From a virus: a stretch of 64,000 nucleotides of DNA. The stretch is from positions 28,967 to 92,966 of IMG/VR virus record IMGVR_UViG_3300017971_007886; one strand, written 5' to 3'. The translations under genes were made by a program, and so were the position numbers. Positions within the stretch are counted from its first letter, which is position 1. Each line of letters starts with the position of its first letter. The notes under the pieces are model-generated. The model was given only the letters and a program-made list of their open reading frames with translations. It had not been told where the DNA came from and ran no database searches. Shown here piece by piece: positions 8,456 through 29,206 of this stretch.

Positions 8456-10531
8456 ATGACGCGAATCTACCTTGCCGGTGCGGAGAGTGGTCCGCTCTCA
8501 GATGAGCTAGAAGAGAACAACGTCAAGCACATCCTCTACTCCTATTTCTGGTTGTCGAAGAAGGATCGGGAGAGGGTGATGGTCGAACGCATAAAACGAG
8601 GTCGGGAGAATGGTATCAAATACCTGCTCGACTCGGGTGCGTTCACCTACCTCGATGCCCAACAGGCGGGCTCGCGACTCCCCTTCAACGTCTACAAGAA
8701 GAGGTACTTTGACTTCATTGCCAAGCACGGTGAGTTGTTCGAGGCGTGCGCGGAACTCGATGTCGAAGGTGCTGAGATAGACGGGATGGGTACAATCTCC
8801 CTCGACCAGGTGTGGCACTGGCGACAACAGATGTTCGAGGCTAACCCGAAAGCCACCATCATGCCCGTCTGGCACTTCGGTACTCGTACCCAAGAAGAGT
8901 GGAACACGCTTTGTGAAGATCCTCTCGTCACCTACCTTGGAATCGGAAGTACCCACAGCGGCGCAGTCTTCAATCAAGAAGGAGTATTCCACAGGCTCAT
9001 TGCGAAGGCCCATGCCCACGGCAAGCGGGTACACGGAATGGCCGCGACCAAGGTGAAGACGCAGTTGAAGAAACTCAAGTTCGACAGCGTAGACAGCGCC
9101 TCCTGGCTATCTGCCCAGAAGTTCGGTACGACGTTCATCTTCAAAAACGGGCAATGGATAGTTCTGGACAAGTACAAGAAGAACCAACGCAGAATCCATC
9201 GACGCCACTTCACCAAGATCGGCGTGGACTACCAAAAACTCGAAGCAGACAAGAGTAGCGAATTACGCCATGCAGCGATATTGGCGTGGAGAGACCTGGG
9301 AGAGTGGCTGATGAAGAAACGGGCCAAGATGCACCAAGACCTGGAAGACCAAATTGCGGCTACACCTCAAGTAGACCCAGAAGTGCCACAGGAGAAGAAA
9401 GTGCCAGCTACGAAGAAGGCCAAGAAGTCCAAAAACAAGGTACCAATCAAGGTACCCGCAAAGGTACTTTCAGGGGTACCGGCACCCCAAAAACCACCTC
9501 GCGGGAAGGCAAAATCGAGTGGTGAAGTCTTCAAAATACCGTGTCCCAGTTTTGGACAAAAAGCAGACGACGGTGCGGTAAAAAGGGGCCGAAGGGGTCG
9601 AAAACGCACATTTGCGCGGACCCCAATTACGACCAGCTCGCGGGATGGAAAACAGACTCCCAAGGTCAACGATAAAGCCACTTCTATGGATAAGGGAGAC
9701 CCTACAGAAAAGGCCCCTGATAAAGGTACCCCGTATCTCGAAGAGGTACCCCAACCTACGCTACCCCAGGAGCCAGTGTCTCAGGACGCACTTGCTACGG
9801 TAGAGCAGCCAGATAGCACACTTCCTACCTGGAAACGCCCTGATTATCTACACAAGACCGAGAAGCAGAGGTCGCTACTCCATGATCTACCACAACTGAA
9901 GTGTGGGCTGTGCTCCATAGGTACTGATTGCCCGTCCTATGATGAGTCACTACAACAGTGTGCCTTTGCTGAAAGGCTCAATGCGTTTCCAGTACGTGAT
10001 GCGGACAATCTACTGGGTGCTATGGAGTACATTGTAGATGTCAACAAGTCGCGGCTATGGAAACTACTTCTCATGGAGAACATGATCGAAGGCGGTATGC
10101 CAAGCGAACGTGCTACGCAACTTTCTGAGATTGTACTGAACCAGCTCGAACGGCTCAGAGAACAAAGAACCATGATGGAAGGCGCTGCTGTGAAAGTCAA
10201 TTCTGGACCCGGTATTCTAAGCTCCATATTTGGGGTCTCTGGAAGGGGGTCTGTGGGGGGTACGGCAGTACAGGTAAATATACAGAACGCCCCAGCTCGC
10301 GGCGCAGATGTACGTGATGATAATCCTGCCAATAGTGGGATTGTAGTGGAAGCACAGACAGTACCCCATAATGTACCTACAGAAGAGGGTACCCCTACTG
10401 CGGCTACTGATGCGCAAGTAGTAGAAGCTGAAACAGAGAATGAAGTACCTAGTTCTGGCGAATCAGGTAGCAAAGCTGACACAGGTACCACAGGAGAGGA
10501 CGCCCCCTCGGGCAAGGGGGTGGGGGGTTAA
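8456..10531 (+). CDS. TGT/DpdA-like guanine transglycosylase fused via a disordered linker to a Cys-cluster/helical C-terminal domain
   Basis: TGT-barrel motifs LLDSGAFT, ELDVE, MPVWH, LGIG, VHGMA, DSVDSASW; C-terminal CGLCSIGTDCPSY...C; queC genes nearby. Confidence 0.7.
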   Translation: MTRIYLAGAESGPLSDELEENNVKHILYSYFWLSKKDRERVMVERIKRGRENGIKYLLDSGAFTYLDAQQAGSRLPFNVYKKRYFDFIAKHGELFEACAELDVEGAEIDGMGTISLDQVWHWRQQMFEANPKATIMPVWHFGTRTQEEWNTLCEDPLVTYLGIGSTHSGAVFNQEGVFHRLIAKAHAHGKRVHGMAATKVKTQLKKLKFDSVDSASWLSAQKFGTTFIFKNGQWIVLDKYKKNQRRIHRRHFTKIGVDYQKLEADKSSELRHAAILAWRDLGEWLMKKRAKMHQDLEDQIAATPQVDPEVPQEKKVPATKKAKKSKNKVPIKVPAKVLSGVPAPQKPPRGKAKSSGEVFKIPCPSFGQKADDGAVKRGRRGRKRTFARTPITTSSRDGKQTPKVNDKATSMDKGDPTEKAPDKGTPYLEEVPQPTLPQEPVSQDALATVEQPDSTLPTWKRPDYLHKTEKQRSLLHDLPQLKCGLCSIGTDCPSYDESLQQCAFAERLNAFPVRDADNLLGAMEYIVDVNKSRLWKLLLMENMIEGGMPSERATQLSEIVLNQLERLREQRTMMEGAAVKVNSGPGILSSIFGVSGRGSVGGTAVQVNIQNAPARGADVRDDNPANSGIVVEAQTVPHNVPTEEGTPTAATDAQVVEAETENEVPSSGESGSKADTGTTGEDAPSGKGVGG

Positions 10532-13424: not shown

Positions 13425-13557
13425 GCCCCAGCACGACTTCGGTGCGCGTGATTGGGCCTTGGTCCAAGCGCATGAACAACGAATGGAGAAGGCCGACAAA
13501 CCACCGGCCCCTCGCAGGGCCACGTTCTCCATCGACCCGAGCGGGAGAGCCGTATGA
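13303..13557 (+). CDS. hypothetical protein (overlaps upstream gene by ~120 nt)
   Basis: GGAGG upstream; ATGA overlap with YkgJ gene. Confidence 0.45.
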   Translation: MAHYLTSMETLNLLQQETKEDQKRNQRRQQAIALVSRTTGRPQHDFGARDWALVQAHEQRMEKADKPPAPRRATFSIDPSGRAV

Positions 13558-14132
13558 AGATCGAAGCTGACAGACCTGAACGAGTCCTAGCCAACTTGCG
13601 TGGGATTGAGATTGACCCAGAAACAGATGCAGCCAAGATCAAGTGGTCTCACTACGAAGGCACTCCGGGTGGTGGAGTGATCGAGGTGGTCGAGGAGCAC
13701 ACCTACACGTTCGATGACCCCGTACTTCGCGGGATCACGAAAGAGCTTCACGACTACCTGGTCGAGTGTATCGAGAGGGACGAGCAACAGCCTCACGAGG
13801 AGAACTCGTGTGAGACGTGTACGACTCAGAACTGCTGTTCGAGCGACTTCTCAGAACCACTGTGGTTGACCCAGAGCGACATCGAAATGTTGGAGCTGGA
13901 TGACGACCAGGTGTGTTTCCTCGGTGAAGGCCACTGGGCCGGAAAGGGAGGTGGCAGTTGGGATGGGAATGACGATCCAGCGTGCAGCGACATCATTGGG
14001 TACATGGTCCGTGATCCGTGGTGCCCTCTTCTCGAAAATGGGAAGTGCTCGAAGTATGGTGTTCGCCCGCTTTCGTGCCGACTTGGCCCAGAGCGGAATT
14101 GCGGAATCAAAGACCTAGATAAGGAGACCTGA
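13554..14132 (+). CDS. YkgJ-family (CxxCxxCC) Fe-S/Zn cluster protein, related to FliB
   Basis: CETCTTQNCC, LTQSDI, WCPLLENGKCSKYGVRPLSCR match the YkgJ pattern. Confidence 0.8.
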   Translation: MKIEADRPERVLANLRGIEIDPETDAAKIKWSHYEGTPGGGVIEVVEEHTYTFDDPVLRGITKELHDYLVECIERDEQQPHEENSCETCTTQNCCSSDFSEPLWLTQSDIEMLELDDDQVCFLGEGHWAGKGGGSWDGNDDPACSDIIGYMVRDPWCPLLENGKCSKYGVRPLSCRLGPERNCGIKDLDKET

Positions 14133-14134
14133 TC

Positions 14135-14833
14135 ATGGCAACAGTCGCGTACAGCGGTGGGATCGACAGCACCGTCCTCATGTACGAGTTGGCCTCTCAA
14201 GGCCGCCTCAACCTGGCGGTACTCTGCAACTTCGGACAGCCATCGTTTGATCGACAGCTTCGTTGTGCGGAGTATCAGATCGCCAAACTCGAAGAGCATG
14301 GCGTGGATGTCCACTTCCGGGTGGTGGAGTTCAAGACGCCCGAGGAGTTCCAGGTCAAGGAGGCTTCTCCGTTCTTCTCGATGCGGCCTCTGAACCCACT
14401 GGCCAAGGCACCAAAGAAAATGAAGGACGCCATCGCGTATCGACTCGATAACTTCGCCATCACCCCAGGACGGAACGCTTTCATGGTCTTGATGGTTGGG
14501 ATGGTCGCGGCGGCCTTGGAGACGAACCCGGCAGTGGTCACGGCGTACCAGTACGAACAGGACATCTGGGATACGCAGGACACCATCTCAGGGGACGAGT
14601 CGCCCTCGTTCTGGTTGAAGATGGGCATGGTTTTGGAGACGGCCTTCGAGGTACCTGTGGCGCTTGAGAACCCGTTCTTGGATCGTCATTGGGACAAGGA
14701 GCGCATCATCCGTGAGGGTATCGAGTACGGAATCGACTTCGCACACACGATGTCCTGCGAATTTGAGGAGCCCTGCGGCGAGTGCGCCCAGTGCCAACTG
14801 GTCAAGAAGACGGTTGCCAAAACCAGGGGCTAG
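14135..14833 (+). CDS. divergent QueC-like PP-loop ATP pyrophosphatase
   Basis: YSGGIDS, NFGQ, TPGRN, ENPF, TMSCEFEEPCGECAQC; lacks YPDC and the Arg after the last Cys. Confidence 0.8.
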   Translation: MATVAYSGGIDSTVLMYELASQGRLNLAVLCNFGQPSFDRQLRCAEYQIAKLEEHGVDVHFRVVEFKTPEEFQVKEASPFFSMRPLNPLAKAPKKMKDAIAYRLDNFAITPGRNAFMVLMVGMVAAALETNPAVVTAYQYEQDIWDTQDTISGDESPSFWLKMGMVLETAFEVPVALENPFLDRHWDKERIIREGIEYGIDFAHTMSCEFEEPCGECAQCQLVKKTVAKTRG

Positions 14834-14958
14834 AACGTAATATGGAGTCTGAACATGGCGTGCGGGCTCTTGGAGCGAAAACGTAGACCTCCAATCCCAG
14901 GCCAAAACTGAGCTGGAGTCAAAACAACAACCTCCACTCAAACAGAAGGAGATGCCAA

Positions 14959-15072
14959 ATGGCACGAGGAAAGAAGAGAGCCTACAAAATGACCACCAAG
15001 GGCAAGCGAACCAAGGCGTTCAAGCCCCTCTTCGGAAAGAAGAAGGTCAAGGGCGGCAAGGGCGGCAAGTAG
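14959..15072 (+). CDS. 37-aa Lys/Gly-rich micropeptide 1 (MARGKKRAYKMTTKGKRTKAFKPLFGKKKVKGGKGGK)
   Basis: GAAGGAG 7 nt before ATG; paralogous to next peptide with mostly synonymous differences; below ORF-track cutoff. Confidence 0.85.
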   Translation: MARGKKRAYKMTTKGKRTKAFKPLFGKKKVKGGKGGK

Positions 15073-15075
15073 GTC

Positions 15076-15186
15076 ATGGCCCGTGGGAAGAAGACGCTGG
15101 TGAAGCGTCTCAAGACCAAGGCCGGGGCCGTACTGCGCCGACTCTTCGGCAAGAAGAAGGTCACGGGAGGTAAAGGCGGCAAGTAG
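15076..15186 (+). CDS. 36-aa Lys/Gly-rich micropeptide 2 (MARGKKTLVKRLKTKAGAVLRRLFGKKKVTGGKGGK)
   Basis: Starts 3 nt after peptide 1 stop; same N- and C-terminal motifs. Confidence 0.85.
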   Translation: MARGKKTLVKRLKTKAGAVLRRLFGKKKVTGGKGGK

Positions 15187-15268: not shown

Positions 15269-17005
15269 ATGTTCAATGACCAAGTTGCTGCCCAAGATAC
15301 CCAACCCGAGTTACTGAGAACCTGCCCCCTCACAGACAAAGAGCTGATCGACAAGGTTCTGATCTTCGTCGAGGAGTTCACGCGACCAAAGCGCGTCGGT
15401 AAGGCAGACCTCTACACCTACCAGAAGGTGTTCGCCCGCCGCATCATCGAATCGGTGGTACTGGCCGAAGGCGACACCATCACTGCTCTCTTCTCTCGAC
15501 AGGCCGGAAAGACTCAGACCGTTGCCGACGTTGCGGTCTCGCTTTGCGTCATCCTCCCTGTCTTGGCCCGAGAGTTCCCCGACGACACCCGGCTCAAGTC
15601 GTTCTCTGCCGGGTTCTGGGTCGGTATCTTCGCACCAGTCATGGACCAGGCAGGTATCTCGTTCAGTCGCATGAGAGCCCTGGCCTCCTCACCAGAGGGT
15701 GAGGCTGTGTTCCGTGACCCAGAGATCAACATCGAGTTGACCACTGACCGTGGCGATGAGCTTGGGTGGAGTACCGGTAGCGTGGTGCGATCCAAGTCTG
15801 CGAGCCCTGACACACAGATCGAGGGCAAGACCTACCACCTCATCCTCTGCGACGAGGCCCAGAAGCTCCTTCGGTCCAAGGTCGAAAAAGAGATCATGCC
15901 GATGTTGGCCGCGACCGCAGGTACGATGGTCAAGATCGGTACTGCCTGGGAGAGTCGCGGCGGCTTCCATACAGACATCCAGTACAACGTTCAAGCGTAC
16001 AGCGACGGTGGCAGACGGAACCATTTCGAGTTCGACTACAAGATGGTGCTCGCGGAGAAGCGGGCGGCCTACGACCGGGATGGTAACCCGTTCCACCTGA
16101 ACTACGAGAAGTACATCGAGAAGCAGATCAAGCGACTCGGCGGCACTGAGAATGAAGAGTTCAAGATGAACTTCATGCTCAAGTGGTTGGAGAGTCGTAT
16201 CATCGCCATCAAGGCATCGACCCTCATGGCCGGTCGAGAGAAGCGCCACATTGGCGAGCTGCCCATGCCGAGGAATGGTCATGTCCTGGTTGCGGGGCTC
16301 GACGTTGCGAAGTCGAACGACAGTACCGTCCTTACGCTCACCGACATAGACTTGGACAATCCCATCGTGGACATCTCCAAATACGGCACACCTCACGACA
16401 AGATCGGTACCATCCAGGGAGAGAGCGAGCAGAACTACTTCTACATGAAGCGAGTGGTCGCGTGGTTGGAGTTGCAAGGGACGTTCGAGGGTGACACTGG
16501 CCAGTACCAACGTGTGCTCGACTTCCTGATGAGGTTCCCTCCTTTGTCCATGTTCCTTTGCGACGCGACTGGCATGGGCGATCCCGTGTACGAGCGGTTC
16601 ACGGTGTTGCTACCTGACATCGACGTTCAGCCGTTCAAGTACAGCGCCCCCTCGAAGTCCGACCTCTACAAATACTACCTGCAAGAGTGGTCCTCTCGTC
16701 GGTTCAAGTATCCTGCCGATGCCGCTGCTCAAGAAACGCCTGAGTTCCAGAAGTTCGAGACACAGCATTTGGACCTAGACAAAATCTCCTCTGGCAACTA
16801 CATCTCGTGCGTAGCCCCCGAAGATGAGCATGACGACTACCCGGACTCGGCGGCCCTGGCGTGTTGGGCCGAGAAGATTCTCAAGAAAGACGCTATGCCA
16901 TTTATCGAAGTGAGTGGTGTACCTGATGGTGGAGCGCGTGATAGGAGTCAGCAATCCTCCGGTTATAGTAACCGGCAGATGCGGTACATGAGAGGACGAA
17001 GATGA
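15269..17005 (+). CDS. terL: terminase large subunit
   Basis: Q-motif LYTYQ, Walker A SRQAGKT, Walker B LILCDEAQ, nuclease GLDVAK/DST, CDATGMG, HDDYPDS. Confidence 0.95.
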   Translation: MFNDQVAAQDTQPELLRTCPLTDKELIDKVLIFVEEFTRPKRVGKADLYTYQKVFARRIIESVVLAEGDTITALFSRQAGKTQTVADVAVSLCVILPVLAREFPDDTRLKSFSAGFWVGIFAPVMDQAGISFSRMRALASSPEGEAVFRDPEINIELTTDRGDELGWSTGSVVRSKSASPDTQIEGKTYHLILCDEAQKLLRSKVEKEIMPMLAATAGTMVKIGTAWESRGGFHTDIQYNVQAYSDGGRRNHFEFDYKMVLAEKRAAYDRDGNPFHLNYEKYIEKQIKRLGGTENEEFKMNFMLKWLESRIIAIKASTLMAGREKRHIGELPMPRNGHVLVAGLDVAKSNDSTVLTLTDIDLDNPIVDISKYGTPHDKIGTIQGESEQNYFYMKRVVAWLELQGTFEGDTGQYQRVLDFLMRFPPLSMFLCDATGMGDPVYERFTVLLPDIDVQPFKYSAPSKSDLYKYYLQEWSSRRFKYPADAAAQETPEFQKFETQHLDLDKISSGNYISCVAPEDEHDDYPDSAALACWAEKILKKDAMPFIEVSGVPDGGARDRSQQSSGYSNRQMRYMRGRR

Positions 17006-17430
17006 AGCCAGCAGACGTATTGAACCTACTCCCCAGGTACCTGGTTCGAGCGGCCCGCATCAACAACATCATCCCGTCTGATCGCCCCAAGCAGTACAAC
17101 GAGACAGCCCAATACGAGCACATCACTCGGAACATTTACGTTGTACCCAACCTTCCGGCAGAGGTCATGCGCCGGTCGATGATTCACGAGATCGCCCACG
17201 CCCTTGACGACAACTTCGGTGTCGGGCACTACTTTGGAGAATCACCAGCCTGGGCAGAGTTGTCGAGGCGAATGTATGGCGACGTGTCTGTGGTCGAAAC
17301 CTTCGCTGAGAACATGGCGACCCACTTGTTGGACCCCACGTTCTCTCGCATGGTGAATCCATCCGTTGCCAAGTTCATGGATGAAGCGTTGACCTATTTG
17401 CAGATCATGTTCAAAGGAAAGACCCAATGA
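17002..17430 (+). CDS. zincin-like HEXXH metallopeptidase-domain protein
   Basis: MIHEIAHALD with downstream ETFAE third-ligand motif. Confidence 0.7.
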   Translation: MKPADVLNLLPRYLVRAARINNIIPSDRPKQYNETAQYEHITRNIYVVPNLPAEVMRRSMIHEIAHALDDNFGVGHYFGESPAWAELSRRMYGDVSVVETFAENMATHLLDPTFSRMVNPSVAKFMDEALTYLQIMFKGKTQ

Positions 17431-18095
17431 CCAAAGAAGAGAGCAAGTTGGTATTCTGTTCGTGTAGTGGTGGCCTCGATTCGAGCGTGATGGTCCAAAA
17501 GCTCGAAAATGAAGGGTACTACCCGATCCCCATCTTCATCGACTACGGCCAGAAGACGGCAATCGTCGAGTTCGACCGCCTTCGCCAGGTGTGGCCGAAG
17601 TGCAAACTCATTCGATTCGACCTCATGGGTGGCATCCGGTGTTGGGCCACCAATCCGGGGGACCAGTTCATCCCCACCCCGAAGCGTGAACGCGATTTGA
17701 TGTTCATCCCTGGCAGGAACATCTTCTTCCTGACGAGGCTGGCCGTCGAGGCGTACTACTTCCACGCCCATTACCTCGCACTCGGGAACAACACCGATGA
17801 CCTCACATGCGGAGACTGCAAGCCTCCGTTCTTGGAGTCGATGGCCAAGTCCCTCACTCTCGGCATGTCCACCCGTGATGCGGGCGAGTACGAGTACGAG
17901 ATCCTTCAACCCTTTGGTGACATGAGCAAAGCCGACATCGTTCGGTACGGCCATGACCACGGGGTAGCCATCGAGAAAACATGGAGTTGTTACGATTTCC
18001 AAGAGAAGCATTGTGGGGTATGCTGGAACTGTGTGGAAAGGAAGCACGCCTTTGAGAAGGCGGGCGTTGAAGACAAGACAGGCTACATAGAGTAG
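17427..18095 (+). CDS. queC: 7-cyano-7-deazaguanine (preQ0) synthase
   Basis: SGGLDS, DYGQ, IPGRN, GDC.PPF, PF..MSKADIV, TWSCY...CGVCWNCVERKHAF. Confidence 0.9.
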   Translation: MTKEESKLVFCSCSGGLDSSVMVQKLENEGYYPIPIFIDYGQKTAIVEFDRLRQVWPKCKLIRFDLMGGIRCWATNPGDQFIPTPKRERDLMFIPGRNIFFLTRLAVEAYYFHAHYLALGNNTDDLTCGDCKPPFLESMAKSLTLGMSTRDAGEYEYEILQPFGDMSKADIVRYGHDHGVAIEKTWSCYDFQEKHCGVCWNCVERKHAFEKAGVEDKTGYIE

Positions 18096-18117: not shown

Positions 18118-18384
18118 ATGGCGAATCTACTGGATGATCCTCGCGGCTTTCACCGTCCGATGTCGAGAGCTGTCATCGACAAGTTGGTCTCAGCCCTAAC
18201 GGGCTCGACTCCTACTGTTGTGGCAAAGGACTTTCGGTTCCCGTTGAATCGGGAGTCAGCGGACAAGATTGCCGCAGCAATCAACAGCGTGGACACCTCG
18301 GGTGAACCCGCGATCACTCGGAAGCAGCTCCATGACCCGTGGTCACGGAAGAACATCGAGCGGCTGAAGAAGGTAGTCATCTAA
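18118..18384 (+). CDS. small protein with three internal repeats
   Basis: AAGGAG RBS; FHRPMSRAVIDKL / FRFPLNRESADKI / LHDPWSRKNIERL. Confidence 0.75.
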   Translation: MANLLDDPRGFHRPMSRAVIDKLVSALTGSTPTVVAKDFRFPLNRESADKIAAAINSVDTSGEPAITRKQLHDPWSRKNIERLKKVVI

Positions 18385-18395
18385 GGAGGTGCCCG

Positions 18396-19064
18396 ATGAA
18401 CCAAACACCCAAGGGCTTGACCCATCTTGGAATCAAGCGTGACTCGTTGGGCGGTATCACTCGGGACACCTCTGCTCAAGTTCTGAGCCCACTGAAGCCC
18501 CTCGGAACTCCAGCTCGTGTTCGGGACAGTGACCCCACCCCGCCGCCGCCAGCGGTCTTGGCTACGATTGCCGAGGCCACTCGCACTGGGGGTGGAGAGG
18601 TGCCGACACCAAAGCCCGACACGTCCAAACTCACCAAGGCAGACCTGGCCGTCAAACCCATCGCCTCTCACAAAGACACGAAGGCTCCGGTCTCGGCCAA
18701 GGAGATGCCAAAGGTGGAGGGCAAGAAGGTTTGGCGGAACCAGTACGGTGTTGGGTACTCCGACACCAACTCTTCGCACGGTAGACGTGCGGAGGGATGT
18801 GTTCCAGGTGGTCGTCACGATGGCAAAGGACCAGAGCGTGGTGGCGAGGGAATGGGCGGCCCGTCTCACGGGCGTACACCGGGAATCCGGCGAGCGTTGA
18901 AGGCCCTGGCCAAGAAGAAGCGTGCGAACAAGAAGCGCATCGCCAAAGGTCAGAAGCCGATAATCGCCGGTAAGAAGGTGACGGCCAAACAGTTCGCAGC
19001 CAAGACGAGTACCACTGTCGCGGCTGTGAAGAAGACCATCAAACGTCAACGAAAGAAGAGGTAG
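18396..19064 (+). CDS. basic, largely disordered protein
   Basis: TAAGGAGG RBS; K/R-rich C-terminus. Confidence 0.75.
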   Translation: MNQTPKGLTHLGIKRDSLGGITRDTSAQVLSPLKPLGTPARVRDSDPTPPPPAVLATIAEATRTGGGEVPTPKPDTSKLTKADLAVKPIASHKDTKAPVSAKEMPKVEGKKVWRNQYGVGYSDTNSSHGRRAEGCVPGGRHDGKGPERGGEGMGGPSHGRTPGIRRALKALAKKKRANKKRIAKGQKPIIAGKKVTAKQFAAKTSTTVAAVKKTIKRQRKKR

Positions 19065-19067
19065 AAC

Positions 19068-19367
19068 ATGGCATGGGCACCAGGCGGTTCCATCCCCTCG
19101 GGAGCGCGGGGCGGATTCAGAACCACAGTCAAGACGATCAGCACCATGATCGACAGAGGCCGGAAGCGGATCTCTGCGAGCATGGAAGCCCTCAACATGG
19201 GGAAGGCGTCGGCGTGTACCACTCGGATCACGCCTGCCGAGAAGGATGCACCACCCGCGTTGCCGGGTAGTGGCGAGTACCAACCTCAACAGATGCAGAC
19301 CCTACCGGGTACTGACATCAGGAACTTCGACCGCAGTTCTCGTGCGAAGACTGGAAAGGTGGGATGA
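19068..19367 (+). CDS. basic hypothetical protein
   Basis: GAGG RBS, packed. Confidence 0.7.
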   Translation: MAWAPGGSIPSGARGGFRTTVKTISTMIDRGRKRISASMEALNMGKASACTTRITPAEKDAPPALPGSGEYQPQQMQTLPGTDIRNFDRSSRAKTGKVG

Positions 19368-19368
19368 T

Positions 19369-19587
19369 ATGGCCATCTCAAATGACCAGCTCGACAACTG
19401 GTTCACGTACCACAAGCCAGGCCCAGGCGACGAAGCGAAGTACGAAACGATGCGGGCAGCGGGACGTGCCCTCGCCCAGGCCATCGTGGACAACACGCCT
19501 GAGTCAGCCGATCAAACCGCAGCCGTCCGAAAAGTGAGGGAAGCGGTGATGACCGCGAACTCAGCTCTGGCGTGTAGCGGGAGGTAG
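19369..19587 (+). CDS. small helical-hairpin protein, Acb2/Tad1-like family (tentative)
   Basis: NWFTYH.P...KYE.MR...LA..I...P.S..Q..A.RK.REA.M.ANSA.A pattern. Confidence 0.55.
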   Translation: MAISNDQLDNWFTYHKPGPGDEAKYETMRAAGRALAQAIVDNTPESADQTAAVRKVREAVMTANSALACSGR

Positions 19588-20681: not shown

Positions 20682-22784
20682 ATGGCAATGACGTTCTTCG
20701 CGGACTCCTCCGGTGCGACAGGAGGAGCAGTACCCTTTCAGAGGGTGATCGACCCCTCGAAGTTGGGGATGTACCTCAACCTTGAGCAGGCCGAACTCCT
20801 TCGACTCCAGAGATACCGTCAACACTGGCGGTTCTACTACAACAAGCACTGGGACTTCGCCCGCGAGGACGGTGACCCGCTCGTCACGTTCAACTACTTC
20901 AAGAAGATCATCGACAAAGGTGCTGCTTTCCTCATCTCGCGAGGGTTCAACATCAAGGTACCGGAGCCCTTAGCCGGGTACACGGCACCTTTCCTTCGCG
21001 AGGTGTGGAAGAAGAACAACGGTGGCAGGTTCATTTGGGACATGGCCCTCATGGGCGGTGTCACAGGTGATTGCTTCATCTTGGTCACGTACCAACAGCC
21101 CACACCGTTGGAGAAGCGCATCTTCCCGTTCGCCCAAGGTAGGATCGTTCTGAACCTACTCGGTAGCGAACAGGTCTTCCCCGACTTCAACCCGCTCAAC
21201 AAAGAAGAGATGCGGTCGGTGCGGATTGAGACTCTGTACTATGACGCACGAGCGGTGTCCGAGGTCGGGAAAGAGGACCGCAGTTCCGAAGGCCGCCAGT
21301 TGAACATTCGGCGGTACACCCAGATCATCACACCGACCACCATCACCGAGCACCTTCAAGGTGAGGAGCCTCGGATTCGTGAGAACGTGCTGGGTGAGAT
21401 TCCTCTCGTCCACATCAAGAACCTTCCGGCACCCAACGAGCCCTACGGTCTCCCCGATTGTCTCGAAGTGATTGACGTACAGCGAGAGCTGAACGAGAAG
21501 GCGACCGACGTGTCCGACGTTGTGAACTACAACGCGGCTCCCATCACCGTCATCACAGGTGCCAAGGCCAAACAGCTCGAACGTGGTCCTCGACAGATTT
21601 GGTCGGGCCTTCCCGAGCGTGCGAGCGTGTTCAACCTCAAGCTGGAGGGAGACCTCGGAGCGGCCAAAGAGTACATCGACATGGTGAAGGAAGTGATGCT
21701 GGAGTTGTCGGACACTCCCGAGGGTTCGCTTGGGAAGATGATGCCGATCTCCAACACAGCCGGTGTAGCCCTTCACATGCAGTTCGGTCCTCTCATGGAG
21801 AAGACCATCAAGAAGCGGGCACAGTACCAGCCCGGTCTTGAGAGGGTGAACTACTTCATCCTTCGCATCGGCCACGTACTCGGTATGATCGATCTCCCGT
21901 TCGACATCGACAAGCTGACAGGCGGGAAGATCGCCTTGGTGAAGACCAAGGATGGGGAAGCGTCATTGCCTCGTGCATACCAGATGAACCCAGCCAACTT
22001 CGACTTCCTGGCCCCGATGGACATGCGGCTCAAGTTCCTTCGCGAGTACAGCTTCGGGAAGGAGATTCGAGAGGAGCCGTATTGGAAGATCGTGGCCGAG
22101 CATCGCGGCGTGTCCAGGTCGTTCTGGGATGTCGAGCCCGAGTCCACGATTGAGAAGAAGGCAGAGAAGAAGCGGTCGGAAGAGAACGCCCAGGCAGCCG
22201 AGAACAACAAGGCCGTCGCCCCATCCAAGGAGGGGGTCAAGCCCGGAGTCGCCAAGCAGCTCCCCAAAGAGGTGGAGCCTGGAAAGATTCCGACCTCTCA
22301 GATCGACATTCCGCCCGAGCCAGAACGTGCTACCATTGTAGTGCGGAAGTACGATTCCAAGACAGGGCACCTTGTTGACGAGGAGGAAGTGACGAGAGAC
22401 CTGGTTCCATGCAGTACGTCACTCGAACGAGTGGAGTACCTGAATCCATACGACAGCGAGATCGCCTTCAATGATCCGCTGCCGAAGGATGTCCACCTCC
22501 AAGCCCAACTCTACAAGCAGTACAAAGAGATGGGGATCGTATCGAAGCAGTGGATTCAAGAACACATCCCAGAGATTGCCCCCTACATTGCCGAGATCGA
22601 GAAGCAACTCGAACGGGAAGCCTCGATCAGTCCTGCCCCAGACATCGCCAGCCCTGCGGAGACCGAGTTGCAGGGTGACGAGGACGCCCGTGGTGCGAAG
22701 GCAGCAAGCCACCCGCCCTCTGGGAAAGAGACCCAAGGGGACATGGGCATGAAAGAGCGCGGGTTGAACACCGGGCGTTCATAG
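20682..22784 (+). CDS. portal protein (SPP1 gp6-like) with large insertion
   Basis: VTFNYFKKIIDK, GGVTGDCF, ENVLGEIPLVHIKN..PYGLPD, SNTAGVAL, FNDPLPKD; position between terL and scaffold/MCP. Confidence 0.9.
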   Translation: MAMTFFADSSGATGGAVPFQRVIDPSKLGMYLNLEQAELLRLQRYRQHWRFYYNKHWDFAREDGDPLVTFNYFKKIIDKGAAFLISRGFNIKVPEPLAGYTAPFLREVWKKNNGGRFIWDMALMGGVTGDCFILVTYQQPTPLEKRIFPFAQGRIVLNLLGSEQVFPDFNPLNKEEMRSVRIETLYYDARAVSEVGKEDRSSEGRQLNIRRYTQIITPTTITEHLQGEEPRIRENVLGEIPLVHIKNLPAPNEPYGLPDCLEVIDVQRELNEKATDVSDVVNYNAAPITVITGAKAKQLERGPRQIWSGLPERASVFNLKLEGDLGAAKEYIDMVKEVMLELSDTPEGSLGKMMPISNTAGVALHMQFGPLMEKTIKKRAQYQPGLERVNYFILRIGHVLGMIDLPFDIDKLTGGKIALVKTKDGEASLPRAYQMNPANFDFLAPMDMRLKFLREYSFGKEIREEPYWKIVAEHRGVSRSFWDVEPESTIEKKAEKKRSEENAQAAENNKAVAPSKEGVKPGVAKQLPKEVEPGKIPTSQIDIPPEPERATIVVRKYDSKTGHLVDEEEVTRDLVPCSTSLERVEYLNPYDSEIAFNDPLPKDVHLQAQLYKQYKEMGIVSKQWIQEHIPEIAPYIAEIEKQLEREASISPAPDIASPAETELQGDEDARGAKAASHPPSGKETQGDMGMKERGLNTGRS

Positions 22785-22961: not shown

Positions 22962-23300
22962 ATGGCCACGAAGCGCGAGTCTACTCTTAGCCCCTGGATT
23001 ACTGGCACACGAGTTCACCATAAACAGGTGGACGGGATCGCCGGTAGGGGAGAGCGACGACGCAACCGTGACGTGATCTATCGGGGTGGTACCGCCGAGC
23101 GTGTGGACATTCCTGAACTGCAAGATCATCTTCTACTCAACAAGGGGTACCTGCCGAAGTACAGCGGGATACCTCTTGCGGAGTTGCTTCGATCCCAGAT
23201 GAAGGCGAAAGGTGTTCCGAAGAAGGAGCAACAACGGATCATCAAGAACGCCAAAGCCCGTCAGAGGTATTGGGACAAGAAGCGGGAGGGCAACGAATGA
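22962..23300 (+). CDS. basic hypothetical protein
   Basis: Packed ORF, K/R rich. Confidence 0.7.
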   Translation: MATKRESTLSPWITGTRVHHKQVDGIAGRGERRRNRDVIYRGGTAERVDIPELQDHLLLNKGYLPKYSGIPLAELLRSQMKAKGVPKKEQQRIIKNAKARQRYWDKKREGNE

Positions 23301-23725
23301 GGGGACTCACTCACGAGATGCTGTCCGTCTTCGGTTCCGGTCGAGGTCACGCAACACCTCAACCGTCTCAGCCGAAAACAAACAACGGACCACCATCTCC
23401 TGTTCATGGCCGTGCAGCTCCAACGCCTGCGAAGAAGAAGCCCCGATCATCTTGGTACGTCACCAAGGGTGGCAGACGGAAGTTTGGGAATCCAGGTCGT
23501 GGGAGCAAGAAGTTGAAGATTCAATCCGAGGCCCAACACAGGTTCTTCGCAGTCGCCCGACAGGGTGGTGTTCCGGGGTTCGACCCGGAGAAGGCCAAGG
23601 CCGCGATGCGACAGCGGAAGGGTCTCAAGCTACCTCAGTATGTGAAGTTGGGGTACAAGGCGTCAAAGAAGAGAGTCGCTGCCCACAAAGCGAAGCAGCG
23701 AAAAAAGTACCCCCACCTGTCGTAG
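23297..23725 (+). CDS. basic hypothetical protein
   Basis: GGAGG RBS, ATGA overlap; SEAQHRFF...KLPQYV motif. Confidence 0.7.
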   Translation: MRGLTHEMLSVFGSGRGHATPQPSQPKTNNGPPSPVHGRAAPTPAKKKPRSSWYVTKGGRRKFGNPGRGSKKLKIQSEAQHRFFAVARQGGVPGFDPEKAKAAMRQRKGLKLPQYVKLGYKASKKRVAAHKAKQRKKYPHLS

Positions 23726-23741
23726 GGAGGGGGTTGAGGAG

Positions 23742-23774
23742 TATAATGTAGGTTGTCCTACCTGATGGTCAGGT
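23742..23774 (+). promoter_or_regulatory. possible head-operon promoter (-10 TATAAT) with downstream small palindrome
   Basis: TATAAT at 23742; ACCTGA-TGG-TCAGGT at 23760-23774; no good -35. Confidence 0.35.
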
Positions 23775-23823
23775 GGTACAACCTTCTTGCTTACCGGGCG
23801 ATTGTCGCTCAAAGGAGAAAACC

Positions 23824-24132
23824 ATGAAGGACACAACGAAGTTTGCCGGTTCGGCAGGCGGCGGTCGCTATCAGGATGCCGGGGTCGGTAATTCTGAGAG
23901 CACCAACGTCGATGCCACCATTCCGGGGAAGTTCCCGAGTGGCAACACTGGGGAAGGCCGAAGCCAGGGTGAGACCTCTGGTGCCGGTTCGATCTACGCA
24001 GCGGGACTCACCGAGCGCCCGAACGTGTCGAACACCCGCAACCTCGGACCTGACAGAGCCCCAAGTCGTTCGGGCTCGACGGCCATTCCGGTCGCCAATG
24101 TCGGTTCTCGAAAGACAGGAAAGTTGGGCTAA
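23824..24132 (+). CDS. Gly/Ser-rich hypothetical protein
   Basis: AAGGAG RBS. Confidence 0.7.
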   Translation: MKDTTKFAGSAGGGRYQDAGVGNSESTNVDATIPGKFPSGNTGEGRSQGETSGAGSIYAAGLTERPNVSNTRNLGPDRAPSRSGSTAIPVANVGSRKTGKLG

Positions 24133-24159
24133 CACCCAACCCTGAAAGGAGAGACCGAC

Positions 24160-25365
24160 ATGCCAGCGACCGCAAACCCAAATAATGCCCAAGCCACAGT
24201 TACGCCGGTAGTGACCCCTCAACCAGGTCAACCAACAACCCCGGCACCAGCACAGACCCAAACACCTGCCCAAGATCCGGCCCAAGCCCCCTCGAACAAT
24301 CCCCCACAGGATGCGGCGTTGACCGCGCCTGACAACGTGGTGGCGATGATCGAGAAGGCACGTCAGGACGAAAAGGCGAAGCTCTATGGTACCCTCGAAA
24401 AGGTGAAGGCCGACGCGAAAGCGAACGCCGAAGCCCTCGAAGCGGCCAACACGAAGCTGAAGGAGATGGAGGTCATTGCGAACAAAGACCTCACAGCCGA
24501 TCAGCGAGTTGAGGCAAGGATAACTGCCCTACAGGAGCAAATCGCCTCAGAGAAGAAGGCACGAGAGGAAGACGCGAAGAGACACACGGAGGAGAACCGT
24601 CGTATCGAACTGGACTCGTACAAGCATCGCCGCCTCGCAGAGGTTGGTGTTGCCAATCTGATTCCAGAGTTCGTTGGCGGGGATTCGCCAGAGGCCATCG
24701 ACGCATCCATTCTCGTGGCGCAAGCGGAGTACCAACGTTTGCGACAGAAGATGTTCCAAGAGTTCGCGGCTGAACACGGGACACAAGGTACTGGCGATGT
24801 ACCCTCTTCGGTGGGTGGATCTCCTGTTACTCCAAGCCCGCATTTCACCCCGAATGAGGCGGTAGGATTTCCATCGCAGGTTAATCCGATGCCTGTCGCG
24901 GAACAGTCGATTGACATGAACACGCTCGCCAACATGACCAGTGAAGAGGCAGTAAGGTCTGGGGCCTATGAGCAGGTTCGAGGACAACTTCTCAGCAATC
25001 TCAAACAAGCCGCTGGTTCAATGGGTGGTACACCTCTTGGCTCTGCCCCGAGACACATGGCGGTTCCCTCAAACGTTCCTCACGTCGAAGGTCCGAATGG
25101 CGTCATGCAGCCTACCGGTTACCCAACGGGTCCGGTACACCCTGCTTCCGTCCAACCTGGCCGAGCCGCGCCGAACGTTGGAGGACAACCGACAGACCCT
25201 CGGGCGGCTGCTATTGAGGCGGTCAACCGAACCAATGCGGGACAGAATCCGCTGATGAACCAACAACCAGGTGGTGCCCCAACGGGACCAACACCACAGG
25301 GCGATGCGGGTGCAGCAGCGGCGGCGTTCCAGCAGAGGTTCACCCCGACACCACCGCTTCGGTAG
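24160..25365 (+). CDS. capsid scaffolding protein
   Basis: IEKARQDEKAKLY coiled coil, LIPEFVGG.SPEAIDASI; directly upstream of MCP. Confidence 0.8.
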   Translation: MPATANPNNAQATVTPVVTPQPGQPTTPAPAQTQTPAQDPAQAPSNNPPQDAALTAPDNVVAMIEKARQDEKAKLYGTLEKVKADAKANAEALEAANTKLKEMEVIANKDLTADQRVEARITALQEQIASEKKAREEDAKRHTEENRRIELDSYKHRRLAEVGVANLIPEFVGGDSPEAIDASILVAQAEYQRLRQKMFQEFAAEHGTQGTGDVPSSVGGSPVTPSPHFTPNEAVGFPSQVNPMPVAEQSIDMNTLANMTSEEAVRSGAYEQVRGQLLSNLKQAAGSMGGTPLGSAPRHMAVPSNVPHVEGPNGVMQPTGYPTGPVHPASVQPGRAAPNVGGQPTDPRAAAIEAVNRTNAGQNPLMNQQPGGAPTGPTPQGDAGAAAAAFQQRFTPTPPLR

Positions 25366-28733: not shown

Positions 28734-29206
28734 TGGGAAGAACACAGCTCAAGAAGAAGGATTGGGACGCGACCGCCCGCAGACTGACTGCGGCGTGTAA
28801 CCGCGCCAAGTCCGTTCCCAAGAAAGTGGTTGTGGAGTTCGCAGAAGAGGTTGCGAAGGAGTGGCAGAAGCGTATCTACGGTCAACAGTTCAGACTGAAG
28901 AAGCTCACACGCGAGTACATGGACTGGAAGATCGCCTTTGGATATGACCGCCGCATCCTCATTCGTACTGGGAAGTATGTCGAGTCAGTCATAGTAAGGA
29001 GGACCAAGACCGGAGCGATGGTGGACCTGGACGCTCGCAAGAGAACGTTCAGTGGCGAGCCCTTGTGGAAACTGGCGCATTGGTTGGAGTACGGTACCAG
29101 TAAGATGGACCCAAGGCCCCACTGGCGGCCCTTGATTCCCTGGGTACGTGTCGAGTGGCCAAGGCACTTCAAGAAAGAGGTGGACAGTCGTGTACGTGGC
29201 ACTTGA
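28733..29206 (+). CDS. neck/tail-completion protein (HK97 gp10 / virion morphogenesis-like)
   Basis: LIRTGKY, LEYGTSKMDPRPHWRP. Confidence 0.8.
   Translation: MGRTQLKKKDWDATARRLTAACNRAKSVPKKVVVEFAEEVAKEWQKRIYGQQFRLKKLTREYMDWKIAFGYDRRILIRTGKYVESVIVRRTKTGAMVDLDARKRTFSGEPLWKLAHWLEYGTSKMDPRPHWRPLIPWVRVEWPRHFKKEVDSRVRGT

Follow-up and report, generated by a model that had tools for sequence, protein, structure and literature searches.

A divergent QueC paralogue encoded beside a cysteine-cluster protein in a phage genome: a candidate accessory module of 7-deazaguanine DNA modification

Introduction

Why would a phage encode a second, divergent QueC-family enzyme in addition to a more canonical one, and what might this enzyme do next to a cysteine-cluster protein and two very short, lysine-rich peptides? 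This question is raised by a locus in the IMG/VR virus record IMGVR_UViG_3300017971_007886, which is 92,966 bp long and estimated to be 98% complete. We analysed the last 64 kb of this record (positions 28,967 to 92,966; 64,000 nucleotides, hereafter ‘the window’), and positions given below refer to the window unless stated otherwise. The locus consists of a gene for a YkgJ-like cysteine-cluster protein, a gene for a divergent QueC that we call QueC2, and two paralogous open reading frames (ORFs), pepA and pepB. An earlier note on this DNA had reported these four ORFs on the + strand immediately 5′ of terL, the gene for the large terminase subunit, and all four are present there. The same note viewed them as a cassette resembling those of ribosomally synthesized and post-translationally modified peptides (RiPPs), in which the two enzymes act on the two peptides.

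Phage DNA is known to contain eight 7-deazaguanine derivatives, and with every further tailoring enzyme new chemistry and new routes for evading restriction have come to light. The interpretation that we favour, and to which we give about an even chance, is that QueC2 and its YkgJ-like neighbour make up an accessory module of phage 7-deazaguanine DNA hypermodification, of an amide-ligase/methylase-like kind, and that the peptides are separate small basic proteins.

QueC2 is a divergent member of the QueC superfamily

QueC2 (14135-14833, + strand) is a protein of 232 amino acids and of the PP-loop, ATP-dependent type. When tested for membership, it proved to belong to the QueC superfamily: it matches PF06508 (E 1.4e-14) with 54.5 bits against a cut-off of 22, and has the SGGIDS motif and four zinc cysteines (C208, C214, C217 and C220). 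It also matches phrog_1550. The experimentally defined motifs of canonical QueC proteins (cluster 1) are YxQxHxxE, VPxRN, YPDC and C(x)8CxxCxxC, with an essential Tyr after the first Cys of the last of these (PMC13329287, Libby et al. 2026). Of these features, QueC2 retains the RN of VPxRN (as TPGRN), the Asp of YPDC and the four zinc cysteines, which are arranged as SCE-x4-C-x2-C-x2-C. However, YxQxHxxE is replaced by FGQPSFDRQ, YPDC by SGDE, and SCY by SCE with a shorter spacer. In E. coli QueC, alanine mutants of the Tyr in YPDC and of the Tyr in SCY are inactive (PMC13329287). QueC2 also contains an insert at approximately residues 66-95 that is specific to its clade. With TIGR00364, the equivalog model for QueC, it scores 44.6 bits, where the cut-off is 150.3. 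These motif losses and this score bear out the earlier note's view of a divergent, non-standard QueC and, together with the separate branch described below, led us to reject QueC2 as a canonical preQ0 synthase.

Only two close relatives of QueC2 were found in a collection of 5.8 billion proteins, at 66% and 43% identity. A tblastn search of 50,697 phage records with QueC2 returned only one gene each in the Vibrio phages GR7B and GR11A and nothing in Campylobacter phages. With QueC1, which is the phage's other and more canonical QueC, 15 Campylobacter phage records were matched. We also searched IMG/VR for related loci using QueC2, the YkgJ-like protein, the QueC2 alignment and TerL, and found no relatives, and the same kind of search in GTDB species genomes gave none either. 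In metagenomes, this search yielded only two distant QueC-like loci, L006 and L007. The latter encodes a canonical QueC, and we discarded it as a relative of QueC2.

Reciprocal BLAST comparisons and a maximum-likelihood phylogeny both unite QueC2 with the proteins P0002 and P0003, GR7B_00117 of phage GR7B and the protein encoded by the metagenomic locus L006. A branch with 100/99 support splits this clade from QueC1 and further phage QueCs as well as from the QueC of E. coli. The tree has long branches and does not include Cap9 or QatC, the QueC paralogues of type IV CBASS and of the Qat system. The QueC2 clade is thus a small phage clade, and none like it is described in a 2026 survey of the QueC family (PMC13329287).

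An AlphaFold2 (AF2) model of QueC2 has a predicted local distance difference test score (pLDDT) of 81. In comparisons of this model using VIA-align, the Z score was 19.3 for Cap9 (25% identity), 18.6 for Bacillus subtilis QueC and 15.0 for QatC. The model is thus no nearer to Cap9 than to canonical QueC, which amounts to a tie, and is further from QatC. Profile hidden Markov models (HMMs) behave similarly: the PADLOC model for Cap9 gives QueC2 54.9 bits and the Pfam QueC model 54.5 bits, so these scores do not discriminate between the two.

QueC2 is encoded next to an eight-cysteine protein

The gene directly upstream of QueC2 (13554-14132, + strand) encodes a YkgJ-like protein of 192 amino acids. 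It has eight invariant cysteines, C86xxC89xxxxC94C95 followed by C157, C165, C175 and C183. For PF03692 (CxxCxxCC) the cut-off is 23 bits; the protein itself falls just short of it at 21.3 bits, and P0010 and P0011, which are homologous to it, exceed it at 32.5 and 29.5 bits. It belongs to the CxxCxxCC/YkgJ family through the scores of these homologues and the eight invariant cysteines. An exhaustive HMMER search of 1.84 billion representative sequences found only two full-length relatives, with 42% and 36% identity. A profile of the family retrieved nothing meaningful from the PDB, and AF2 run on the single sequence gave no usable model (pLDDT 41). A test for a DUF3109-type protein such as DpdM, made with PF11307, gave no match in the phage genome at E≤1. 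This test is insensitive, as it was silent also in Vibrio phage VH1_2019, which is closely related to VH7D and was expected to hold a DpdM. From its sequence features, the YkgJ-like protein is a candidate iron-sulphur (Fe-S) or zinc enzyme of the kind represented by the lysine methylase FliB and the phage enzyme DpdM.

The start codon of QueC2 lies 2 nt past the TGA of the YkgJ-like gene and is preceded by an AAGGAG Shine-Dalgarno sequence. This 2-nt gap suggests that the two genes are translationally coupled. Furthermore, for both the cysteine-cluster homologue with 42% identity (P0010) and the QueC2 homologue with 43% identity (P0003), the source given is an NCBI contig 17,547 bp long, and they are therefore very probably on one and the same contig. 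The remaining homologues, P0002 and P0011, come from a Logan contig of 9,894 bp and an ENA contig of 3,137 bp, respectively. The YkgJ-type and QueC-like identities that had been proposed for these adjacent genes agree with the Pfam matches, and their coupling is backed by both the spacing and the 17,547-bp contig.

Gene context of the QueC2 clade in other phages

The closest phage relative of QueC2 belongs to a 7-deazaguanine gene cluster. In this phage, Vibrio phage vB_VcorM_GR7B, the clade member GR7B_00117 is preceded by a gene for a DUF5591 protein (the core of ArcS) and a canonical QueC gene, and is followed by three genes of unknown function, a gene for a radical S-adenosylmethionine (SAM) protein resembling lysine-2,3-aminomutase (LAM) and a GNAT gene. 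This cluster (L012; MT366760.1, 7096-16311), which runs from GR7B_00119 to GR7B_00112, is uncharacterised. We found no match to PF03692 or to the YkgJ-like protein in GR7B, and no twin lysine-rich ORFs near the cluster. The next protein, GR7B_00111, has a lysine-rich tail with the sequence KKGGKKGGKK, which recalls the GGKGGK ends of the peptides in the window.

In the metagenomic locus L006 (Ga0114919_10038990, 76-2449), a gene for a B12-binding radical-SAM protein overlaps the start of the QueC-like gene, whose best matches are members of the QueC2 clade. Genes encoding a TSCPD domain and a GIY-YIG domain follow. L006 is probably another phage in which an Fe-S enzyme is paired with a QueC paralogue, and no peptides of the window type are found beside its clade member. 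On the sequence evidence from these loci, the QueC2 clade recurs beside enzymes predicted to tailor nucleobases or to carry Fe-S clusters, in phages where deazaguanine genes are also present or adjacent, and not beside twin lysine-rich peptides.

Genes for 7-deazaguanine DNA modification in the same genome

The genome has the gene set of DpdA-type 7-deazaguanine DNA modification, which is a known system in phages (PMC10516641). A DpdA-like transglycosylase is encoded at 8456-10531 (+ strand); it matches phrog_887 (E 5e-41) and, by tblastn, annotated DpdA-like genes of phages. Its DpdA-like domain makes up approximately the first 300 amino acids and is fused to a long linker rich in Lys and Pro and to a C-terminal domain that contains cysteines. 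Upstream of the window are genes for QueD (genome coordinates 22042-22494; PF01242, E 1.7e-26), a radical-SAM, QueE-like protein (genome coordinates approximately 23051-23305; E 4.9e-13) and FolE (genome coordinates 23494-24255; E 1.4e-59). Judging from these three genes, the phage can be predicted to make 7-carboxy-7-deazaguanine (CDG).

QueC1 is encoded at 17427-18095 (+ strand), 2.6 kb downstream of QueC2, and matches PF06508 with an E-value of 2.2e-32. In the tree it falls with QueC proteins of the E. coli type. We assume from its sequence that QueC1 is a preQ0 synthase, and the phage thus presumably makes preQ0 through QueC1. QueC1 is itself atypical, with CGDC where YPDC is expected, and a TIGR00364 score of 89.7 bits against the cut-off of 150.3. 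There is no QueF in the genome: PF14489 picks up nothing but the T-fold of FolE, with a sub-threshold score of 23.7 bits.

Two lysine-rich peptides downstream of QueC2

The pepA ORF (14959-15072, + strand) encodes 37 amino acids with a net charge of +16, and its paralogue pepB (15076-15186, + strand) encodes 36 amino acids with a net charge of +14. Both peptides begin with MARGKK and end in LFGKKKVxGGKGGK, the C-terminus of pepA being LFGKKKVKGGKGGK. Aligned over 37 positions, the two agree at 22. The pattern of divergence differs along their length. Among the 20 conserved terminal codons there are seven synonymous changes and one replacement, such that the proportion of synonymous sites that differ (pS) is 0.52 and that of non-synonymous sites (pN) is 0.02 (pN/pS 0.04); the probability that at least seven of eight such changes would be synonymous is approximately 2e-4. 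The 16 codons in the middle show saturated divergence (pN/pS 0.87) with their basic character kept. The high pS argues against recent gene conversion, and so selection is acting on the termini of the peptides. As judged from their codons, pepA and pepB are real genes under purifying selection at the protein level on the termini.

A ribosome-binding site (AAGGAG) lies 7 nt 5′ of the ATG of pepA. The pepB ORF starts 3 nt past the pepA stop codon in the same frame, with TAG-GTC between the two, and both ORFs are called by gene callers in public collections. Read-through of the TAG at this junction (15070-15078) would yield a single protein of 75 amino acids with an internal repeat. Between QueC2 and pepA there is a match to a sigma-70-like promoter (TTGCCA-18-TAATAT, 14814-14843, + strand), which is weak evidence, with one match seen where 0.6 are expected by chance. 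RNA folds predicted in the intergenic regions are no more stable than those of shuffled sequences.

We looked for relatives of the peptides in several ways. Degenerate DNA patterns representing their termini revealed no relatives in IMG/VR and nothing in 185,579 GTDB species genomes. A word-based search with the open frame around pepA, among proteins of 33-105 amino acids in the collection of 5.8 billion proteins, found only pepA itself, and the ESM Atlas gave only unnamed clusters below the threshold. These absences are weak negative evidence, since small ORFs often go uncalled. The distant clade members in GR7B and L006 likewise have no such peptides beside them. Apart from adjacency, nothing was found that links the peptides to the enzymes in a RiPP-like cassette. 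By their sequences and position, the peptides appear to be orphan small polycationic proteins that are placed, and probably expressed, with packaging genes. They are more likely to be nucleic-acid-binding or packaging-associated proteins that are expressed with terL than to be substrates of the enzyme pair.

Neighbouring genes

The terL gene (15269-17005, + strand; phrog_2, E 1.9e-16) encodes a protein with 35% identity to the TerL proteins of Bacillus phage BCD7 and Streptomyces phage BRock. Both of these phages have DpdA according to tblastn, and neither has que genes or lysine-rich ORFs around terL. No small terminase is evident as a separate gene before terL. An ORF for 142 amino acids (17002-17430, + strand) with an HExxH motif (HEIAH) has 4-nt overlaps with the terL stop and the queC1 start; it matches only phrog_20936, a family of unknown function, and nothing in the PDB is related to it. 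The run of terL, this ORF and queC1 looks translationally coupled. Blastn searches with the locus found no match among GenBank phages.

A protein of 113 amino acids encoded between queC1 and the portal gene (19246-19587, + strand) matches the Acb2/Tad1 hairpin family (PF24729, E 7.6e-8; 32.9 bits, cut-off 27), and is a candidate sponge for cyclic-nucleotide immune signals. A protein of 241 amino acids (18339-19064, + strand) has a net charge of +32 and a very lysine-rich C-terminal tail. With pepA and pepB, several strongly polycationic proteins are thus encoded near the packaging genes.

Discussion

The gene content of this phage suggests a pathway in which QueC2 and its neighbour could act as an accessory module. 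FolE, QueD and the QueE-like protein would supply CDG, QueC1 would turn it into preQ0, and the DpdA-like enzyme would place a base into DNA. We infer that QueC2 would still adenylate the 7-carboxylate of a deazapurine, with a remodelled substrate pocket. It might then use a nucleophile other than that of QueC1, or stop at the amide, or take as its substrate a deazapurine that had already been altered, for example by methylation. The cysteine-cluster partner could methylate or otherwise tailor the product of QueC2, either as a free base or in DNA; the two characterized members of its enzyme kind, FliB and DpdM, are metal- or Fe-S-dependent N-methyltransferases. Such a module would yield a 7-deazaguanine derivative that is not among the eight already known, and DNA containing it would be protected from host nucleases. 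The presence of a full CDG/preQ0 toolkit and a DpdA-like gene in the same 93-kb genome supports this proposal, as do the action of DpdM in phage deazaguanine clusters, the eight-cysteine layout in common with FliB, the well-supported separation of the QueC2 clade and its recurrence beside tailoring or Fe-S enzymes, and the contig that homologues of the pair very probably share.

Several observations weigh against an accessory DNA-modification module. The clade members in GR7B and L006 have only 24-31% identity to QueC2 and sit on long branches. A profile of the QueC2 clade found only Cap9, a protein-modifying enzyme, in the PDB (E 5e-5). The YkgJ-like protein matches PF03692, and the insensitive PF11307 search did not place it in DUF3109, the family under which DpdM is filed. 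Moreover, preQ1, the known substrate of DpdM, would not be made by a phage lacking QueF. The product of the module and the DNA modification itself are predictions from the genes, and the strong conservation of both peptide termini beside the enzyme pair has no explanation under this proposal.

This conservation is what would be expected of recognition or modification sites, and the peptides are encoded directly downstream of QueC2. The enzymes might therefore modify the peptides: QueC2, like Cap9 and QatC, would ligate CDG to an amine of pepA and pepB, at the N-terminus or at lysines, the YkgJ-like enzyme would methylate lysines as FliB does, and DpdA would perhaps place the adduct in DNA. The profile match to Cap9 is consistent with this idea, as are the nominal first rank of Cap9 among the structural matches (although tied with QueC), two motif features that QueC2 and Cap9 have in common (FxQ and a zinc motif that opens with ‘CE’), and the fact that FliB is a lysine methylase of the same cysteine-cluster kind. 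The authors of the Cap9 study also point out that, with its N9 free, the conjugated base might be inserted into nucleic acid. We nevertheless regard peptide modification as unlikely. The failure to find peptide relatives leaves it with no evidence from synteny, and the clade members in GR7B and L006 occur without such peptides. Known substrates expose Gly2, whereas pepA and pepB would expose Ala2, and QueC2, which has SGDE, does not have the aromatic residue of YxDC with which Cap9 stacks on the base. In addition, pepA and pepB are preceded by a strong ribosome-binding site of their own and by a promoter-like site, and the locus lacks the leader/core layout, the protease and the exporter that are typical of RiPP clusters. 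The acidity of both enzymes of the pair is not specific either, given a median isoelectric point (pI) of 5.1 for the proteome. In its full version, with QueC2 linking CDG to the termini or lysines of both micro-proteins, FliB-like methylation and insertion of the base-peptide adduct into DNA by the DpdA-like enzyme, a purely speculative step, this scheme seems quite improbable to us; if it were true, the phage DNA would be covalently decorated with peptides, neutralized in charge and resistant to nucleases.

Two other explanations leave the peptides aside or give them a lesser part. The two QueC proteins could divide the labour of a known pathway, with QueC2 as the synthase of 7-amido-7-deazaguanine (ADG), comparable to the proposed QueC* of Campylobacter phage CP220, or as the enzyme for just one of the two half-reactions, both ATP-dependent, that QueC catalyses; this would give a known base such as dADG, the corresponding deoxynucleoside form, and the cysteine-cluster protein would be a structural or redox helper. 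QueC* has indeed been proposed as an ADG synthase in phages, QueC1 is atypical in its CGDC motif and its sub-threshold TIGR00364 score, and GR7B likewise has two adjacent QueC genes. However, it is QueC1, and not QueC2, that matches Campylobacter phages, and dividing the labour in this way offers no role for an eight-cysteine partner that recurs with QueC2 homologues, such that we find this explanation distinctly unlikely. Alternatively, QueC2, with or without the peptides, might serve in counter-defence by disturbing the deazaguanylation carried out by type IV CBASS or Qat systems of the host, for instance by consuming CDG or providing decoy substrates. Its resemblance to Cap9 and the Acb2/Tad1-hairpin protein encoded 4 kb downstream, whose family comprises anti-CBASS/Thoeris sponges, fit this role. 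The phage's own CDG synthesis and DpdA already account for its QueC-family genes, however, and we consider counter-defence a very improbable function. That the truth lies with none of these explanations, our own included, we consider fairly unlikely, if a real prospect.

The QueC2 clade, with its rebuilt pocket and its recurrence next to Fe-S or cysteine-cluster enzymes in phages, is a candidate source of a ninth derivative. Since QueC2 stands as near to Cap9 as to QueC, it is also relevant to the question of how the conjugation of nucleobases to proteins originated from QueC. Should the peptides turn out to be substrates of QueC2, this would be the first viral deazaguanylation system.

Comparison with known systems

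The system that most affects our interpretation of the YkgJ-like protein is DpdM. DpdM is a DUF3109 protein whose E. coli homologue is YkgJ, and it has a CxxxCxxCC motif and further cysteines in two metal sites. It is an experimentally supported N-methylase that converts dPreQ1 to mdPreQ1 in phage DNA. The earlier note framed the YkgJ-like protein by reference to FliB only and overlooked DpdM, the only characterized phage member of this kind, which moreover acts in the same pathway. With DpdM as a YkgJ homologue, a simpler reading directed at nucleobases presents itself. The protein in the window resembles DpdM in being YkgJ-related, in its location within a phage 7-deazaguanine cluster with DpdA and QueC, and in having eight cysteines with an N-terminal C..C..CC arrangement. 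On the other hand, DpdM is described as DUF3109 with CxxxCxxCC, while the window protein matches PF03692 and has CxxCxxxxCC, and phages with DpdM encode QueF, which provides preQ1, whereas the phage analysed here does not.

The precedents on which the proposal of peptide modification drew are real, in that Cap9 and QatC carry out deazaguanylation and FliB is a lysine methylase. FliB has a CX4CX3CC motif and eight conserved cysteines, and catalyses [4Fe-4S]-dependent N-methylation of lysine (PMC8598068). Like the window protein, it has eight cysteines with an N-terminal C..C..CC arrangement, and its substrate, the epsilon-amine of lysine, is attractive in view of the lysine-rich peptides. However, the spacing of its motif differs, it acts on flagellin in Enterobacteriaceae, and HMMER finds no sequence similarity between it and the window protein.

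Cap9 (PDB 9NTO) is a protein of approximately 185 amino acids with the motifs Y/FxQ(x)5E, H(x)4YxDCxxxF and CE(x)6CxxCxxCxD (PMC13329287). It has in common with QueC2 the QueC fold, the PP-loop, the RN, the substrate Asp, the ‘CE’ start of the zinc motif and FxQ. In terms of the Cap9 motifs, FxQ, DxxxxF and ‘CE’ are thus present in QueC2, and the E, Y and C residues are replaced by Q, S and E, respectively. Cap9 keeps YxDC and is encoded beside a cGAS/DncV-like nucleotidyltransferase (CD-NTase) with a Gly-rich N-terminus. In contrast, QueC2 has 232 amino acids with an insert, lacks the stacking Tyr, and is encoded beside a cysteine-cluster enzyme in a phage. No Pfam domain of a CD-NTase occurs in the QueC2 neighbours that were scanned, and the peptides start with Met-Ala, where the known substrates of Cap9 and QatC expose Gly2 in a flexible, Gly-rich tail. 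QatC is larger, with approximately 400 amino acids, N- and C-terminal extensions, motifs specific to it and qatA, qatB and qatD as neighbouring genes. We rejected QueC2 as a QatC, as it is only 232 amino acids long, has no match to NF041925 or PDLC02214, and has its lowest Z score of the three with QatC.

Canonical QueC (PDB 3BL5, or b0444 of E. coli) is similar to QueC2 in its fold, the SGGxDS motif, the four zinc cysteines and the PF06508 match. It differs in the three motifs that are replaced in QueC2, in the wider spacing after the first zinc Cys, and in its position outside the QueC2 clade. Finally, Vibrio phage vB_VcorM_GR7B provides a parallel at the level of the genome: like the phage studied here, it encodes a canonical QueC and a QueC2-type paralogue together. 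The partners in GR7B are the ArcS-core, LAM-like radical-SAM and GNAT proteins and three unknowns, where the window has the YkgJ-like gene and the twin peptides.

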